Below, piece after piece: positions 7,014 through 34,747 of a stretch of DNA of 39,201 nucleotides. This stretch comes from a virus: UHGV virus genome UHGV-0121072. One strand, written 5' to 3'. Each line of letters begins with the position of its first letter. Position 1 is the first letter of the stretch. The translations under genes and the position numbers were made by a program. The notes beneath the pieces were generated by a model, which saw only the letters and a program-made list of their open reading frames with translations, was not told the origin of the DNA and did not search any database.

Positions 7014-7033
7014 ATCCTATAGTGATAGTTTAG
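7012..7033 (-). promoter_or_regulatory. Phage RNAP promoter (CTAAACTATCACTATAGGAT) upstream of gp1.1
   Basis: Consensus copy; position equals T7 phi1.1. Confidence 0.7.
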
Positions 7034-16448: not shown

Positions 16449-18782
16449 TTATGCACTATTAGCGGGTCTGTCTAAGTACCATCCATAGTTTGTTTTAGTC
16501 AATTGTATAAGCTCCCCGTTTGTTTTGTATTGAGTAACACCAGACGCCGTATTGTACATTATCCTCTCATTAACATTAACGCCACCTCCTTGTTTGACAA
16601 GGGTAACTACTGTACGTGACGAGAGTGGGAGTATACGTATTGTTTTGCCTACATACCCACCAGTTATTTTAGTGATCGCCGAGCCAGAGGCCCCCGAATC
16701 GAGATACAATAAATCCACCGCATCGGCATCAATGGTAGAAACAACTGAGTTTACGGTAGAAGTTGTTGCAGCGTTTTCCCTTACGAAAGACGAGCCATTC
16801 CAGCGGTACATCAACCCATCCGACAGACCAATAACCTTCTCATTAACCCCAATATCAGGCGCGTAAGTTTTAGATGTATCCACTATTTTAAAAGTACCGC
16901 AAAACGGAACGGGGATAATATTCGAGCCAGTTAAACGGTTAACTGTATATAGGGAGTTATTGACAGTCCATTGCCTACCATTCCATACACTCATGAAAGC
17001 CCCTGACGACAAAAGAACCGTAGAACTATAGCCGGTTTCAACATGCGCAGATTCAGACAATAACCCTTTATCTTGTGGGTTACTGAAATCGTCAGTGCAA
17101 TCAAATAGTCTTAAGTTAGCGCGCCCCTCGAATTTTCCTGTAGAACCAACAGGGGCCACAACGAAAAGATAATCCTTATCAAAACCATAATCAGGGCCAA
17201 CGCGTAAGAACGACGCCATACAGTTAGTGGTAGGGAACTGCCCTTTTACAACCCACTTTCCACTAGAATCTTGCATTAATAGCTTTTGAATGGCTATTGT
17301 GTACGACTTAGTAGTGGTATCCGCAGCACGCTCAATAGCGAAAGGCGTTCCGTCATAAAAATTTCCGAAACCAATTTCACCACCAGATGTGCCTATAGTA
17401 TCGGTATCTGTGTCTTTCCTGACATCTTCACCATAAATATAATTGCCGTCTTCGTCAGTAGTTATATACCCTTCTACAATACCTGAAGAAATAGTAGTAA
17501 GGTAGTAATAGGGTATCGCAGGCCTGCCATTAATGTATCCTACTTGCGTTGGTGCGATAGATGAGAAATACGCACCTGCAGGCTTAACGGCGGATGTAAT
17601 ATCAACTGGCGCACTCCATGTCTCCCCCCGATCTTTAGATACGCAATATTCAATAGTGGATGTGTTGTCCGGGTTTGTGCCTTGTTGTGCGTGACCCCAC
17701 CCCGTAATCCCCTTCATTGATGTAAAGAAACAATACAAATAGCCATCAAGATTATTCAGGAATAGTACCGTTTCAGATGTGGCATACCCTGGACCTTTGT
17801 TAACAACAGTTCCAGTTGTCCAGTTCACACCGTTATCATCAGATATTAGGTAATCGATGTGCATAGGTGTACCGTCCTGTCCTGGGTCAATATTGGCACC
17901 ATCCTTCACTGTGTAGATGCATACCACCCTACCACCTGGAAGTGATACCGCTTTTGGTGCAAAGTTAAATACATTCTCTACATAAGTTTGCAACTGTAAG
18001 CTCAAATTATTGTTAAAGCTTCTTGAGTGTTTATTCCCAAAAGTGAAATTAAATCTATTTTTTGCAAATGATAGCCTTTTGTAAAGCTCAAAATCTTTAT
18101 CCTTGACCGCTCCGTTAACTAAATCAACTCCGTCATCACCAGCTAGGTCACTTCTTAAACTTGCATCGCCAACACTAACCCATGCGTCAGATGATTTAGG
18201 AGTTGAACCAGCAGGAACGTTCTTTGGAAGAGTACCGTCCCAGCGGTAATACTCACCATCCTCTTCCCATAGCAGGACCTCGTTCCATTTTGTAACGTTG
18301 AAGCCTTTCTCGAAGGAGCGGCGGGTAATATAGCCAAATAGACCAGCTTCCTTTATACTAGCAGCGATTCGGCGTGCTTCATCCTCGCTATCCTTAGCGT
18401 TGCCAGCAGAGCTACCAGCAGCCTCGGCATACTCCTTCGCCAAGTCAACCGTTTGGTCTCGACCTTCTTCTGCAATATGGATAGCCTGAAGCTCTGCATT
18501 GGTCAGGTCAATAGCTGTTAAGACTGAGCCATTCCTGAAGTCTACCACTAAGTCAGTTCCAGTCTGACGGTGAATACGAACGATGTCAAAACCTGATTGG
18601 TCAACCAACATCTCAATCATCGTTGGGTTAAGGAATCGGTAATCTCGACCAACTTCCAGTACACGGTTCAGGGTAGGGTTAGAGCTATTCACCAGCGTAA
18701 CAACAACAAACGTTCTGGCTAGGTAGTCGAACTCGATCCTGTACCGAGTGCTTCCTGAAGGGAATTGTGTAATCGTTGACAT
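16449..18782 (-). CDS. gp17: Tail fiber/tailspike: T7 gp17-like N-terminal anchor domain fused to a sialidase-like (Asp-box) C-terminal domain
   Basis: 777 aa; first ~150 aa resemble the T7 gp17 N-terminus (FDYLARTFVVVTL, LVDFRNGSVLTAIDL); C-terminal part has two Asp-box motifs SDDNGVNW and SKDRGETW. Confidence 0.88.
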   Translation of the reverse strand: MSTITQFPSGSTRYRIEFDYLARTFVVVTLVNSSNPTLNRVLEVGRDYRFLNPTMIEMLVDQSGFDIVRIHRQTGTDLVVDFRNGSVLTAIDLTNAELQAIHIAEEGRDQTVDLAKEYAEAAGSSAGNAKDSEDEARRIAASIKEAGLFGYITRRSFEKGFNVTKWNEVLLWEEDGEYYRWDGTLPKNVPAGSTPKSSDAWVSVGDASLRSDLAGDDGVDLVNGAVKDKDFELYKRLSFAKNRFNFTFGNKHSRSFNNNLSLQLQTYVENVFNFAPKAVSLPGGRVVCIYTVKDGANIDPGQDGTPMHIDYLISDDNGVNWTTGTVVNKGPGYATSETVLFLNNLDGYLYCFFTSMKGITGWGHAQQGTNPDNTSTIEYCVSKDRGETWSAPVDITSAVKPAGAYFSSIAPTQVGYINGRPAIPYYYLTTISSGIVEGYITTDEDGNYIYGEDVRKDTDTDTIGTSGGEIGFGNFYDGTPFAIERAADTTTKSYTIAIQKLLMQDSSGKWVVKGQFPTTNCMASFLRVGPDYGFDKDYLFVVAPVGSTGKFEGRANLRLFDCTDDFSNPQDKGLLSESAHVETGYSSTVLLSSGAFMSVWNGRQWTVNNSLYTVNRLTGSNIIPVPFCGTFKIVDTSKTYAPDIGVNEKVIGLSDGLMYRWNGSSFVRENAATTSTVNSVVSTIDADAVDLLYLDSGASGSAITKITGGYVGKTIRILPLSSRTVVTLVKQGGGVNVNERIMYNTASGVTQYKTNGELIQLTKTNYGWYLDRPANSA

Positions 18783-25032: not shown

Positions 25033-25623
25033 TTAGCTATGACCTGTAGGTGTACCTTTAGCAGCACTAATTGGTGCAGCACCACCACCAGAGCGGGACG
25101 CTCCAGAGATTGACTTACCAGCGGCGTAGCCTTGCATCCCGGCGGTAGCAACATTAAGTGCATGAGCCAGTGGGTTGGTCTTAATGATTTTACCTTGACC
25201 ACGGATAGCAGACTTGGTGTTCTCAATGTTGGCGATACGGTTCCCGAAGATAGCCGCATAATCGCGGTTGTAACTTTCGGTAATCCCTGCTCGCTCCTTG
25301 ACTGTATCTCCTTCGACCTGACGTTCAATCCTGTCCATAGAGTTACCTTCTAGACCGGACTCAGCCACCGCAGCTCGGACCATGCCCTGATTGCGGATAC
25401 CGTTGAGCGTGATCTCTGTCAGTTCAGCCATCTGCTGCTCCTTCAGGCCTCGCTCCTGCATCCTCAGGTTGGCGTCAGAGTAGTTCATCTGCTTAACCAT
25501 TTCCTGAGCCTGTCGGTTCTGAGCGTCAATTGCTGCACCTTCTGCCTTGGCCTGTTGGGATGCGGACATAGTGGCACCAGCTACAGACATGACTCCTAGA
25601 CCGATGGATACTGGTTCACACAT
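25033..25623 (-). CDS. gp14: Internal virion protein B
   Basis: 196 aa (same as T7); N-terminal MC...; EGNSMDRIER resembles T7 EGSSMDRIKR. Confidence 0.85.
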   Translation of the reverse strand: MCEPVSIGLGVMSVAGATMSASQQAKAEGAAIDAQNRQAQEMVKQMNYSDANLRMQERGLKEQQMAELTEITLNGIRNQGMVRAAVAESGLEGNSMDRIERQVEGDTVKERAGITESYNRDYAAIFGNRIANIENTKSAIRGQGKIIKTNPLAHALNVATAGMQGYAAGKSISGASRSGGGAAPISAAKGTPTGHS

Positions 25624-26078
25624 ACGTCCTCCTTAGAGATAGTGAATAATTGAAAACGCTCACCAGTTACTGGGCTGATAGTCCAATCATCATGGAACTT
25701 AGCCCCAAGCAACTTCAAGAATTTAATGTGAGACTTATTGCCTGACCACACGTAGTTCCAGATGGTCCCGTATTGGTCTAACATTAAGTCCCTGTACTCA
25801 GAGATGCAGCGAATGAACTCTCGCTTCTCTTTAGGTCTCAGCTTATAGACCAGACCGGAAGTCAAGAACCATACGTTATCCCCTTGGTTTCCACCATAGG
25901 CAAACACTTCGCCTACACCGTTCGTTAAAACCACAGATGACGGGGATAAATGCTTAAGCAGTCTTTCAGATAGACCCACGGTTGACCCGTAGTTTGCTTT
26001 GCACTCATTAACATCATCTGCTGAAAGATGCCACAGAAAGTAGTGGACATCTGGTTCCGTAGCCTTGCGAATATACAT
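25596..26078 (-). CDS. Hypothetical 160-aa protein in the gp13 (internal virion protein A) position
   Basis: ATG with AAGGAG SD directly downstream of a promoter; assignment by synteny only. Confidence 0.45.
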   Translation of the reverse strand: MYIRKATEPDVHYFLWHLSADDVNECKANYGSTVGLSERLLKHLSPSSVVLTNGVGEVFAYGGNQGDNVWFLTSGLVYKLRPKEKREFIRCISEYRDLMLDQYGTIWNYVWSGNKSHIKFLKLLGAKFHDDWTISPVTGERFQLFTISKEDVCVNQYPSV

Positions 26079-26097
26079 AAAGTCTCCTTATAACCTT

Positions 26098-26147
26098 AAG
26101 GGCCTATAGTCCCTATAGTGATAGTTAAGGTAAATCTATAGGCCCTT
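26098..26147. repeat. Perfect 12-bp inverted repeat (AAGGGCCTATAG ... CTATAGGCCCTT) enclosing the phi13-like promoter
   Basis: Arms at 26098..26109 and 26136..26147 are exact reverse complements; the loop contains the promoter core. Confidence 0.8.
26108..26129 (-). promoter_or_regulatory. Phage RNAP promoter (CTTAACTATCACTATAGGGA) upstream of the gp13-position gene
   Basis: Consensus copy; position equals T7 phi13. Confidence 0.7.
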
Positions 26148-26154
26148 CAATAAG

Positions 26155-28512
26155 TTAGACGGAACGAGCTTTCTTAGCGTATGACGCCTCCCAGCCACAC
26201 CCAACGATTGACACTGGGGTAGGGTAGTCGGACTCTAAGGTTAGACTCGTGGTTAATGCGTTACCATTCATAGCGAAGCGATACTGTCCATCCCCAATGC
26301 TGGTAGTCCCAATTGTCTGCTGACCAAGGGTGTACCCGTTGAAGGTGTTCACGAACTCACGCTCACCGTTTCTGACAATTAGTCTCAGAGCGCCAGTGTC
26401 CTTGTAGTTTACCCAAGCCCTGCGAAGCTGTAGACGCCCAGTGTCTTCAGACTGAGTACCACTATCGTCTTCAATCTTAATAAGGAACCGTGAGAACTTG
26501 TAGGACATCAGATAAGACCTTCCGATGAACACTGTACGTCCTGACCAATCGCCGTTGAGTACAGCCACAGTTGAGATGTCAGTCAATTCACCAAGGTCCA
26601 CGTAGGCACCCTGACTGTCAATAAGATAGTACCGACCGGGAGACGGAGCGTTTCCACCATAAGCAGAACCAATGTCAACCGTAGTCTTATAGGTGTCAGA
26701 GTTGTATGAGTCAATTGGTATTACCATAGACACCTTGGAGTCAACGTGGAGTCTATACGGCTCTAATGGAAAGTCAGTTGCCTCCTTGATGAACTTAAGG
26801 TGCTCAAGGTCCACGCCGCCTTGGTGCTGACGAACAATGAACATGGTAGAGCCAATCGACGCAGACGCCAGAATCTTATCAGTTTTAGGGAACTCCCAGT
26901 GCGACCAAGAGGCTTGAAGCTGTACGCCGTCCTTAAACAAGAACTTGTAGATGTAGATTCGGTTGTATGCACCTGTAGAGTTTACGCAGATGTAGTTCTC
27001 AGTCCCGGTACCTTGAATATCGAACACCCCGTTAGGGATGTAGGACAGTACGTGACCAGTTGTATCATCGGCATCCTTCACATCAGACACATCAGCTACA
27101 GCGAAGTATCGCTTAATGCTGGTGAATGACCCACGAGGCGCTGAGAAGAAGACTGAGCGTCCTACAGCGAACGGTCTGGCATTGTCACCTAGGGCAAACT
27201 CTGAGCCTACATCAAGCTGGATAGACTTCGAGGTAAGTACCCCAGAGCTTGTCATCACGAACTGCACCTCGTCAGACCAAAGTAGTAGCTGCTCGCTAAA
27301 CGGAACGGCATACTTAAGGATTGAGATTCGAGGGTGACTTACAGCTACGTCAATAGGGTCATCATCACTCAGTGTCGCCACACTCTTAGGGAAGAACGCA
27401 AAGTAGCTGGCTGAACGGCTCATGATTACGTTCTCACCTGACAAGAACCCAAGCCTGTTCCTGTAGAAGAACACATCGTTAATCGTAGCATCCACGAAGC
27501 TAGGCATAGGGTTTGTGTCATCATTACCAGCACCACGCTTAGACCAGTCCAGAGTCTTGAACTCAAAGGAGCCATCAGATTGTCGTACCAGAGCGTGTGG
27601 CATTGTGGTGTTATCGAACCCAGTGACAACTCCCGGCTCCACTGTCTCCTTCCACGTCTTAGTGTTGGAGTCATATATCACGTAGTATTCATCGGCGCTA
27701 CTGTTTGTCTCGCCTTGAATCTTAATGATATACCCATTAGGAGCGGCAAGAGGTAGTTTAGAGATTGTCTGCACAGTGTCTAGGACTGGGCTTATTAGCT
27801 GGTTAGCGTAGCCGTCCTCCGTCTCCACTGAGTTAATATCGGTCCCTGAAGGAGCTGTGATTAGCAGGAATCCAGACCCAAGGTCAAACGTGAAGGTAGG
27901 ATAGGCAGCAACAAGAAGGTCTCTCAGAGCTGCTCCAATGGCTTGAGCGTCCACCTTAGGTGGGTCATTCTTGGCATCATTACCTGCTGGCAACTTATGC
28001 GAAACCTTAACGCCTCCGTTGATTCCTACCTTAAGGGTGCGACCATACTGTCCCCCACGAAGGTTGATTAAAGCATGAGCTTTACGATTATAACCAGAGT
28101 GTGACTTCTCGCTTCCACCTTTAACGACAACCTTACGGTTAACGACGAACGTATAGTCTGCCACGGTAACGACACGGATGTCATCTCGGGGGTTGGAGGA
28201 CTTAACGTAGTCTACCGCACCTGACACTGAGTATTGATTGCCACTCAAGTCAACTACCTGAATGTTGGACCCATTGAACACGATGTAATACTGCTCATGC
28301 TCGTCACGGTTAATCAGATGGAACTTAGGGTTGCTCCCAACGTCGATGTTAAGACGTCTCTTGAAGACTGTAGGTGGGCGCTTCTGGAGGCCATCACTCT
28401 CGGATGACCAGCAGTTAACCTGTTCCTCGCCTTGGTCTGAGAACCTCAGTATATCAGGCTGCTGGCTAATGCCACCTTTAAGATTTTTTATGCTTTGTGT
28501 GATAAGCGGCAT
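26155..28512 (-). CDS. gp12: Tail tubular protein B
   Basis: 785 aa; QSIKNLKGGISQQPDILRF, FYRNRLGFLSGENVI, DDDPIDVAVS, RLQLRRAWVNY, IVGCGWE match T7 gp12. Confidence 0.93.
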   Translation of the reverse strand: MPLITQSIKNLKGGISQQPDILRFSDQGEEQVNCWSSESDGLQKRPPTVFKRRLNIDVGSNPKFHLINRDEHEQYYIVFNGSNIQVVDLSGNQYSVSGAVDYVKSSNPRDDIRVVTVADYTFVVNRKVVVKGGSEKSHSGYNRKAHALINLRGGQYGRTLKVGINGGVKVSHKLPAGNDAKNDPPKVDAQAIGAALRDLLVAAYPTFTFDLGSGFLLITAPSGTDINSVETEDGYANQLISPVLDTVQTISKLPLAAPNGYIIKIQGETNSSADEYYVIYDSNTKTWKETVEPGVVTGFDNTTMPHALVRQSDGSFEFKTLDWSKRGAGNDDTNPMPSFVDATINDVFFYRNRLGFLSGENVIMSRSASYFAFFPKSVATLSDDDPIDVAVSHPRISILKYAVPFSEQLLLWSDEVQFVMTSSGVLTSKSIQLDVGSEFALGDNARPFAVGRSVFFSAPRGSFTSIKRYFAVADVSDVKDADDTTGHVLSYIPNGVFDIQGTGTENYICVNSTGAYNRIYIYKFLFKDGVQLQASWSHWEFPKTDKILASASIGSTMFIVRQHQGGVDLEHLKFIKEATDFPLEPYRLHVDSKVSMVIPIDSYNSDTYKTTVDIGSAYGGNAPSPGRYYLIDSQGAYVDLGELTDISTVAVLNGDWSGRTVFIGRSYLMSYKFSRFLIKIEDDSGTQSEDTGRLQLRRAWVNYKDTGALRLIVRNGEREFVNTFNGYTLGQQTIGTTSIGDGQYRFAMNGNALTTSLTLESDYPTPVSIVGCGWEASYAKKARSV

Positions 28513-31686: not shown

Positions 31687-31757
31687 TGAGTCATTCTCCT
31701 TTGATTGAAATGGTAGGAACAACGGGACTAGAAACCTACAAATTGTAGACCAGACGT

Positions 31758-31779
31758 TGTTCCTATAGTGATAGTTTAG
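31758..31779 (-). promoter_or_regulatory. Phage RNAP promoter (CTAAACTATCACTATAGGAA) upstream of the scaffold gene
   Basis: Consensus copy; position equals T7 phi9. Confidence 0.75.
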
Positions 31780-34518: not shown

Positions 34519-34579
34519 CTTGAAGCTCCTCTTTAAGTTAAGACTAAAGTCTATCTTATAGTCATATCTTAGGTCCTAA

Positions 34580-34601
34580 AGTCCCTATAGTGATAGTTTA
34601 G
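34580..34601 (-). promoter_or_regulatory. Phage RNAP promoter (CTAAACTATCACTATAGGGA) upstream of the gp6.5-position gene
   Basis: Consensus copy; position equals T7 phi6.5. Confidence 0.75.
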
Positions 34602-34654
34602 TGTTTCACCTATGGATGACTGTTGGATTGATAGGATATGACTATCGGTTAGAC

Positions 34655-34747
34655 TCAGTGTTTAGGGCGGTTGTTCGACCCGAACCACTTATACATGCAG
34701 TAAAGGGCCAGAAGTCCGACCCAGTAGATTACATGGATGGTGTCCAC
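34655..34747 (-). CDS. Candidate 30-aa hydrophobic peptide with GTG start (gp6.3 position)
   Basis: GTG at 34747 preceded by AAGGAGG at 7-nt spacing; overlaps the 3' end of gene 6 in another frame. Confidence 0.2.
   Translation of the reverse strand: MDTIHVIYWVGLLALYCMYKWFGSNNRPKH

Follow-up and report, generated by a model that had tools for sequence, protein, structure and literature searches.

What does an exact inverted repeat do when it encloses a phage promoter in the short gap between two genes of a T7-group phage? The repeat lies between genes 12 and 13 of the virus genome UHGV-0121072, which was analysed over its full length of 39,201 nucleotides (hereafter the window). A preliminary description of this DNA had offered three functions for it, namely an RNA processing site, an attenuation site and a protein-binding palindrome, and these are weighed here against the fold of the RNA, the conservation of the repeat in related phages and the structures found at the same junction in other genera.

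Genome context of the repeat

The window is a Kayfunavirus genome (K1F/EcoDS1-like, T7 group, Studiervirinae) presented as the minus strand of the gene map, and all of its genes lie on the minus strand. From 25500 to 26800 it is matched by 219 phage records at 80–96% identity, nearly all of them Kayfunavirus; the 141 nt around the repeat are 100% identical to EcoDS1 and K1F, and this region is present in 222 GenBank phage records. Relative to the usual T7-group map the window runs as the reverse complement, and it is circularly permuted with respect to EcoDS1; the positions of φ13 (26113) and φ6.5 (34585) imply that the conventional left end is internal to the window and does not coincide with an edge.

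Gene 12, an open reading frame for tail tubular protein B (785 aa), occupies 26155–28512 on the minus strand, and the open reading frame of gene 13 (160 aa) occupies 25596–26078 on the same strand. The 76-nt gap that separates them holds both the inverted repeat and the promoter φ13. The gene 12 stop codon is found 6 nt upstream of the 5′ arm of the repeat and the gene 13 Shine-Dalgarno sequence 9 nt downstream of the 3′ arm, and the segment formed by the gene 13 ribosome-binding site (AAGGAG, 26088–26083) and the AUG start codon (26078–26076) covers 26076–26088 on the minus strand, 3 nt downstream of the lower helix described below.

Genes 13 and 14 directly overlap in the window (about 25596–25623). 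An endonuclease VII gene of about 400 bp lies between these two genes in vB_EcoP-101136BS1, EcoDS1 (gp13.5), Penshu1, yong1, U8 and CY1 (coordinates 1478–1879 in the sequence filed as L002 and 25877–26278 in EcoDS1), and the window is without it. A homing-endonuclease or insertion scar was considered as the source of the repeat and rejected, since the extra endonuclease VII gene of the relatives sits between genes 13 and 14 and not at the repeat.

Geometry of the repeat and of promoter φ13

The two 12-mers reported in the preliminary description, AAGGGCCTATAG (26098–26109) and CTATAGGCCCTT (26136–26147), were confirmed to be exact reverse complements over 12 bp with a spacing of 26 nt, and they form the only perfect inverted repeat of at least 12 bp with a loop of 3–60 nt in the window. 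On the mRNA (minus) strand the 5′ arm, 5′-AAGGGCCUAUAG-3′, spans positions −34 to −23 (26136–26147), with the conserved core GGCCUAUAG at 26144–26136, and the 3′ arm, 5′-CUAUAGGCCCUU-3′, spans +5 to +16 (26098–26109), with the conserved core CUAUAGGCC at 26109–26101. Between the arms, at 26110–26129 on the minus strand, CTTAACTATCACTATAGGGA matches the phage-RNAP promoter consensus exactly. The identical site is annotated as promoter phi13 (25367–25389) between gp12 and gp13 in the curated EcoDS1 record EU734172, so that the earlier placement of the promoter at 26108–26129 was essentially right; the EcoDS1 annotation puts −17 to +6 at 26130–26108 on the minus strand, with +1 at 26113. The consensus occurs 9 times in the window when up to 3 mismatches are allowed, or 11 times with a looser search for the core, in every case on the minus strand.

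The 26-nt loop comprises the promoter φ13 plus 26131–26135 (AUUUA), and +5 and +6 are the first two bases of the 3′ arm. Read along the mRNA strand, the order is therefore 5′-AAGGGCCUAUAG (−34 to −23), AUUUA, CCUUAACUAUCACUAUA/GGGA and CUAUAGGCCCUU (+5 to +16). The first 7 nt of the 3′ arm duplicate the promoter core CUAUAGG, whose end is 2 nt upstream, giving the tandem core copies CACUAUAGGGA-CUAUAGGCCC, the second of which is the 3′ arm. Because the 3′ arm is this second CUAUAGG copy at +5, the whole promoter is left in the loop and the stem does not depend on the promoter proper. These junctions contain three TATAGG-like motifs, one each in the promoter core, the 3′ arm and the ribosome-binding site region.

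A perfect 12-bp repeat with a loop of 3–60 nt arose in 11% of 300 first-order Markov shuffles of the window (mean 0.16 per shuffle), and for this reason the length of the repeat is only mildly unusual and is weak evidence when taken alone. The repeat is judged non-random because it is centred on a promoter within a 76-nt gap and is kept in relatives. Membership in a repeat family was rejected, the arm sequence being found nowhere else in the window apart from the promoters themselves. A scan of IMG/VR for the arm pair returned the gene 12–13 junction only, besides 5 unrelated chance matches (e.g. collagen-like repeats and other hairpins).

Folding of read-through and φ13-initiated RNA

The hairpin that had been proposed for RNA reading through from gene 12, with a 12-bp stem and the promoter in its loop, was recovered in the folding calculations. 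The read-through 50-mer folds at −20.4 kcal/mol (z = −3.8), a stability reached by 0 of 200 shuffles, and the 12-bp stem is both the minimum-free-energy and the centroid structure of the read-through RNA, with a probability of about 1. The entire intergenic region gives z = −3.0, and over the read-through folds 0–1 of 200 shuffles were equally stable. RNA initiated at +1, on the other hand, contains the 3′ arm alone, as had also been stated, and has no significant structure (−9.8 kcal/mol, z = +0.9). The upper stem paired with a probability of 0.98–1.00 in all ten sequence variants that were folded. In a weaker alternative the 5′ arm can pair over 7 bp with the promoter core.

The perfect 12-bp repeat is not the whole of the structure, since a second, lower helix extends it. 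The 5′ strand of this helix, UAACU (26153–26157, minus strand), includes the gene 12 stop codon UAA (26157–26155) and was obtained from the RNAalifold consensus of 15 sequences; the 3′ strand, GGUUA (26091–26095, minus strand), was obtained from both the fold and RNAalifold, and reads AGUUA in most relatives, the difference producing a U-G pair here. Two unpaired A residues (26096–26097) separate the lower helix from the upper stem. Over the 15 sequences 98.7% of the cells of the lower helix are paired, with one U-A to U-G change in 4 sequences and one T-to-C change that breaks a pair. The two helices measure 12 and 5–6 bp in the window (17–18 bp in total) and 9–18 and 5–7 bp in relatives, reaching about 23 bp in total; in two variants with UUUC after the 5′ arm (L018 and L062) the stem grows inward to +1 to +4, up to about 18 + 5 bp.

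There is no U-run after the stem, where the sequence is CCCUUAAGG in the window and CCCUUUAAG in relatives, with the tail UUAAGGUUAU, and no terminator-like site was detected between 25900 and 26400 on either strand. The φ13 hairpin thus does not show the combination of a G+C-rich hairpin and a direct U-run that characterizes a class I terminator. An Rfam search of the whole window gave no match.

Masking of the gene 13 Shine-Dalgarno sequence was also considered, given that the minimum-free-energy fold of the window sequence pairs GUCU..CUUAU with AUAAG.GAGAC, but this pairing is not conserved. Among 10 variants the Shine-Dalgarno pairing probability was 0.11–0.51 in read-through RNA versus 0.25–0.58 in φ13-initiated RNA, and masking was dropped as a conserved mechanism because the read-through values are not consistently higher.

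Conservation within Kayfunavirus

Junction sequences (identified below by L numbers) were taken from 23 IMG/VR contigs located via gp13, from a scan for the arm pattern and from 6 GenBank records at the low-identity end of the matches. Nineteen distinct junction sequences were collected, of which 15 were aligned. The record OP272493 (L058) was left out; its region is degraded, but the record itself looks error-ridden, with fragmented ORFs and indels.

The preliminary description held that absence of the inverted repeat from close relatives, together with a lack of transcript ends or processing there, would refute its proposal; the repeat was found in all close relatives. What is conserved is narrower than the perfect 12-bp repeat seen in the window. 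The inner 9 bp, GGCCUAUAG/CUAUAGGCC, are invariant in all Kayfunavirus-like sequences recovered, bar one A-to-G change giving a G-U pair, and they are kept even where gp13 identity has dropped to 62–67% (L022–L025). Conservation breaks down in the outer three pairs: of the 15 distinct sequences, 6 have the G-C pair (it is mismatched in the other 9) and 11 have the adjacent A-U pair, all of the changes being on the 5′ side and without compensation. Among the sequences aligned, the perfect 12-bp repeat is a trait of the K1F/EcoDS1 subclade, and wider conservation is limited to the inner 9 bp.

The 9-bp core is also kept where other promoter upstream regions occupy the loop, AAACUAUUACACCCUCACUAUAGGGA in L019, L022 and L059–L061 and AAAUAUUUAACACUCACUAUAGGGA in L025, so that the core arms stay at −31 to −23 and +5 to +13 while the promoter upstream region changes. 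Identical arms around three promoter upstream regions are consistent with a stem that is independent of the promoter. Flanking intergenic positions vary and carry indels, and GGCC, by which both arms are extended, does not vary. Pairing is preserved in two one-sided changes, each giving G-U on the mRNA strand, and no compensatory double change was found within the genus among the 15 aligned sequences; in the absence of such double changes, the evidence within the genus is conservation and not covariation, and it has no statistical support as covariation.

About half of the distinct variants (L013, L014, L017, L020, L022, L024, L059, L060 and L062) differ by an 11-nt indel (AUACUUUAAGA-like) between the lower helix and the Shine-Dalgarno sequence, which means that the length of the gene 13 leader varies while the hairpin does not. 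A more distant relative, L021 (IMGVR_UViG_2700988933_000001, 1420–1503; gp13 67% identical), is without the GGCC arms, and here GUCCCCUAU pairs with AUAGGGGAC of its own promoter. For the upstream segment AAAGUCCCCUAUGG of L021 there are two possible partners, the core of the L021 promoter (CUAUAGGGGAC) and the ribosome-binding site region of gene 13 (GUAUAGGAGACUUU).

Hairpins at φ13 in other genera

Some 1,350 Studiervirinae records match gp12. The gene 12–13 junctions of T7, T3, Vi06, K11, 285P, Kvp1, PP74, fPS-50, RPN15 and Pf-10 were compared with that of the window. A hairpin overlapping φ13 was found in every enterobacterial genus compared, as represented by T7, Vi06, the T3-like RPN15, K11, Berlinvirus (285P, Kvp1 and PP74) and Helsettvirus (fPS-50), with z-scores of −2.7 to −6.4. 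In these genera an upstream segment pairs with the core and start region of the phage's own φ13. The 5′ and 3′ arms are UUCUCCCUGUGGUGG and CUCACUAUAGGGAGAA in T7 (z = −4.2), GUCUCCCUGCGGUGA and UCACUAAAGGGAGAC in T3 (z = −6.2), CCUUAUGGUGUGCUC and GGGCACACUAUAGGGAG in K11 (z = −6.4) and GCCUCUUUCAAUA and UAUUGAGAGGGGC in fPS-50 (z = −4.8), and the hairpin of the Berlinvirus 285P has z = −3.6. Since the promoter sequences differ between genera, both sides of the stem have changed and the pairing has persisted, and a 5′ arm that changes in step with the promoter amounts to covariation at the level of genera. In the Pseudomonas phage Pf-10 the gap is 29 nt long and no hairpin of this kind is present, and the feature is accordingly not shared by the whole subfamily.

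The T3 record AJ318471 annotates a stem_loop at 25443–25480 as 'RNase III recognition site R13', overlapping the 'T3 promoter phi13' at 25457–25479, and in the same record the stem_loop R6.5 (17135–17206) wholly encloses the promoter φ6.5 (17160–17182). RNase III sites are not listed in the T7 records examined, and none is annotated in the Kayfunavirus records examined, EcoDS1 and K1F carrying the promoter at most. In fPS-50 (LT961843; 1030–1063 in L067) an annotated 'terminator' overlaps the φ13 promoter, and this is most likely an R13-type hairpin that was caught by a terminator predictor. The T3 Luria sequence (AJ318471; about 3497–3511 in L072) has a run of 15 G between R13/φ13 and the gene 13 start, at which place the T3-like RPN15 has GAGGGG.

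Other promoter hairpins in the window

Two of the 11 promoters in the window lie inside a hairpin, φ13 and the φ6.5 equivalent. The latter promoter (34582–34601, minus strand, +1 at 34585) matches φ6.5 of EcoDS1, and its hairpin spans 34548–34655, with 24-nt arms (34548–34571 and 34632–34655) that are 83% complementary and separated by 60 nt, and folds at −33.3 kcal/mol (z = −4.4). By its arrangement it looks like a counterpart of T3 R6.5. With both the φ13 and the φ6.5 equivalents in hairpins, the window phage repeats the T3 pattern of R6.5 and R13.

At the φ9-equivalent promoter (31714–31765, minus strand, +1 at 31763) a perfect 11-bp stem begins at about +1 (region of GGAACAACG...CGUUGUUCC), and transcripts from it would consequently begin with a 5′ stem-loop. 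Strong hairpins are also found just downstream of the promoters at 7017 and 1682.

Interpretation of the φ13 hairpin

The reading that we favour, with moderate confidence, is that the φ13 repeat is the Kayfunavirus counterpart of the R13 RNase III processing hairpin of T7 and T3. Four results obtained here bear on it directly, namely the fold, its conservation, its equivalence in position to the annotated R13 and the contrast between read-through RNA, which forms the hairpin, and promoter-initiated RNA, which does not. Of the three functions originally offered, processing fits best, given the hairpins of six other genera and R13 of T3; the structure belongs to a known feature of the T7 group that had gone unrecognised in the preliminary description.

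Late transcripts from upstream promoters would run through gene 12 and fold at the gene 12–13 junction into a bipartite hairpin made up of the UAACU/GGUUA lower helix, a small internal loop, the 12-bp upper stem (9 bp of it conserved) and the 26-nt φ13 loop. Host RNase III would cut this hairpin, probably on its 3′ side within the internal loop at about 26096–26097. The cut would leave a gene 11–12 message with a protective 3′ hairpin, and would free a message for gene 13 onward with a 5′ end close to that of the RNA made from φ13. RNA initiated at φ13, having the 3′ arm alone, would escape processing. Cleavage by RNase III, the place of the cut and its consequences for RNA stability are all suggested by analogy with the T7 and T3 sites.

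The same fold and the same conservation would be expected if the hairpin were a functional RNA structure that is not an RNase III substrate, serving as a barrier to 3′–5′ exonucleases or as an insulator between the folding of genes 12 and 13, with any processing left to another nuclease. In most relatives no more than 9 bp of the upper stem are conserved, a short duplex for RNase III, and this agrees with such a role. However, the T3 record labels the hairpins at the equivalent positions as RNase III sites, R13 is counted as an RNase cleavage site of T7 (PMC6938266), and without a terminator no transcript 3′ end is expected here unless the RNA is cleaved. We regard a role of this kind as unlikely.

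It is less probable still that the repeat has no function of its own and is a by-product of the duplication of the promoter core (CTATAGG-GA-CTATAGG) beside an older upstream complement, CCTATAG. Because CTATAG is itself palindromic, an inverted repeat arises easily in this way, and the start of the 3′ arm with the exact promoter sequence CTATAGG, the 7 bp that the 5′ arm can form with the core and the frequency of perfect 12-mer repeats among shuffled windows are all as such an origin would have it. What it explains is the origin and not the conservation, since the GGCC extension is invariant at 62–67% gp13 identity while neighbouring positions vary, and the equivalent hairpins of other genera are far more stable than shuffles.

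The arms might instead be conserved as DNA, either as a protein-binding palindrome that flanks or modulates φ13 or as part of a promoter-dependent secondary replication origin. Within the genus the arms are invariant and do not covary, and their positions stay fixed while the promoter upstream region changes, as would suit a DNA site; T7 φ13, in addition, has been reported to support plasmid replication in infected cells. These observations have to be set against hairpins with unrelated arms in the other genera, which favour pairing over a sequence-specific site, against the occurrence of the motif once per genome and at no other promoter, and against the two pairing-preserving changes, which are G-U pairs in the sense RNA and mismatches in the DNA. 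We know of no candidate protein that would bind the φ13 palindrome. The protein-binding function offered at the outset is disfavoured because other genera keep the pairing and not the sequence, and a DNA-level role of either kind seems to us very improbable.

An attenuator or pause site for the phage RNAP, cutting gene 12 read-through so that genes 13 onward depend on φ13, is hardly credible: a stable hairpin does lie directly upstream of gene 13, and the terminator predicted by the fPS-50 annotator overlaps φ13, but T7-type class I terminators need a U-tract and here no U-run follows the stem, with no terminator-like site on either strand.

If the φ13 hairpin is taken as the R13 counterpart, the feature has been kept in at least seven Studiervirinae genera despite complete turnover of its sequence, and in Kayfunavirus it has been rebuilt on a duplicate of the promoter core, leaving stem and promoter uncoupled. 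A larger role, which we mention as a long shot, would be that of a sorter of read-through from promoter-initiated RNA, after which the messages of genes 13–16 would differ in stability, translation or timing, Kayfunavirus having shifted the 3′ arm onto the downstream copy and so let promoter and RNA structure evolve independently. Such uncoupling of promoter and RNA structure would explain the presence of three upstream regions between identical arms.

For annotation, the φ13 and φ6.5-equivalent stem-loops could enter Kayfunavirus records as putative RNase III sites, and in the engineering of K1F-type therapeutic phages insertions at the gene 12–13 junction should respect the hairpin. Nothing found here overturns current understanding. 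A literature search for φ13 or R13 together with RNase III returned a T7 simulation paper only, and no transcript-end data for a Kayfunavirus came up in the literature searched.

Comparison with known RNase III sites

R13 of T7 and T3 occupies the same place as the window hairpin, in the gap between genes 12 and 13, and overlaps φ13 in the same manner, so that read-through RNA holds the whole hairpin and φ13-initiated RNA begins inside it. In T7 and Vi06, as in the window, there is a lower helix beneath the upper stem, formed between the end of gene 12 and the gene 13 leader. The upper stem of T7 ends at 27280 in the fold, and the T7 R13 cut, which Dunn and Studier reportedly placed at nucleotide 27281 in 1983, would then fall immediately 3′ of this stem.

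The differences are mostly of geometry. The core and start region of the promoter (about −9 to +6) serve as the 3′ arm in T7, T3, K11, Berlinvirus and Helsettvirus, and the loop has 5–10 nt. In the window, by contrast, CUAUAGG occurs a second time, followed by CCCUU, and this segment at +5 to +16 is the 3′ arm; the loop, of 26 nt, takes in the whole promoter, and the stem has fewer pairs (12 bp, 9 of them conserved). The arms share no sequence with R13 of T7 and T3 (GGCCUAUAG vs UCUCCCUGUGG), and the equivalence is one of position and architecture only.

In its architecture R6.5 of T3 is like the window φ13 hairpin, with a bipartite stem interrupted by an internal loop, the promoter from −17 to −1 in the apical loop and the 3′ arm shortly after +1, although it lies at a different locus and its helices are longer (about 9 + 10 bp). 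The early T7 sites of the R1.1 type share the bipartite stem, the internal loop and an overall length of about two helical turns; they differ in having small apical loops with no promoter inside, and in that their cleavage and the proximal and distal box rules are experimentally established. With an upper stem of 9–12 bp and a loop of 26 nt, the window hairpin is shorter and more open than the classical T7 substrates of RNase III. Substrates of the E. coli enzyme hold roughly 20–22 bp of mostly paired RNA, often with an internal loop in between, and its cuts leave 5′-phosphate and 3′-OH ends. A duplex of ~22 bp can be accommodated by the enzyme (PMC6212723), and the composite helix of the window comes near this range, at its short end. 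Taken together with these systems, the φ13 hairpin is most likely one more case of the structure known from T7 and T3, unexceptional for this group of phages and with a modest variation in geometry.
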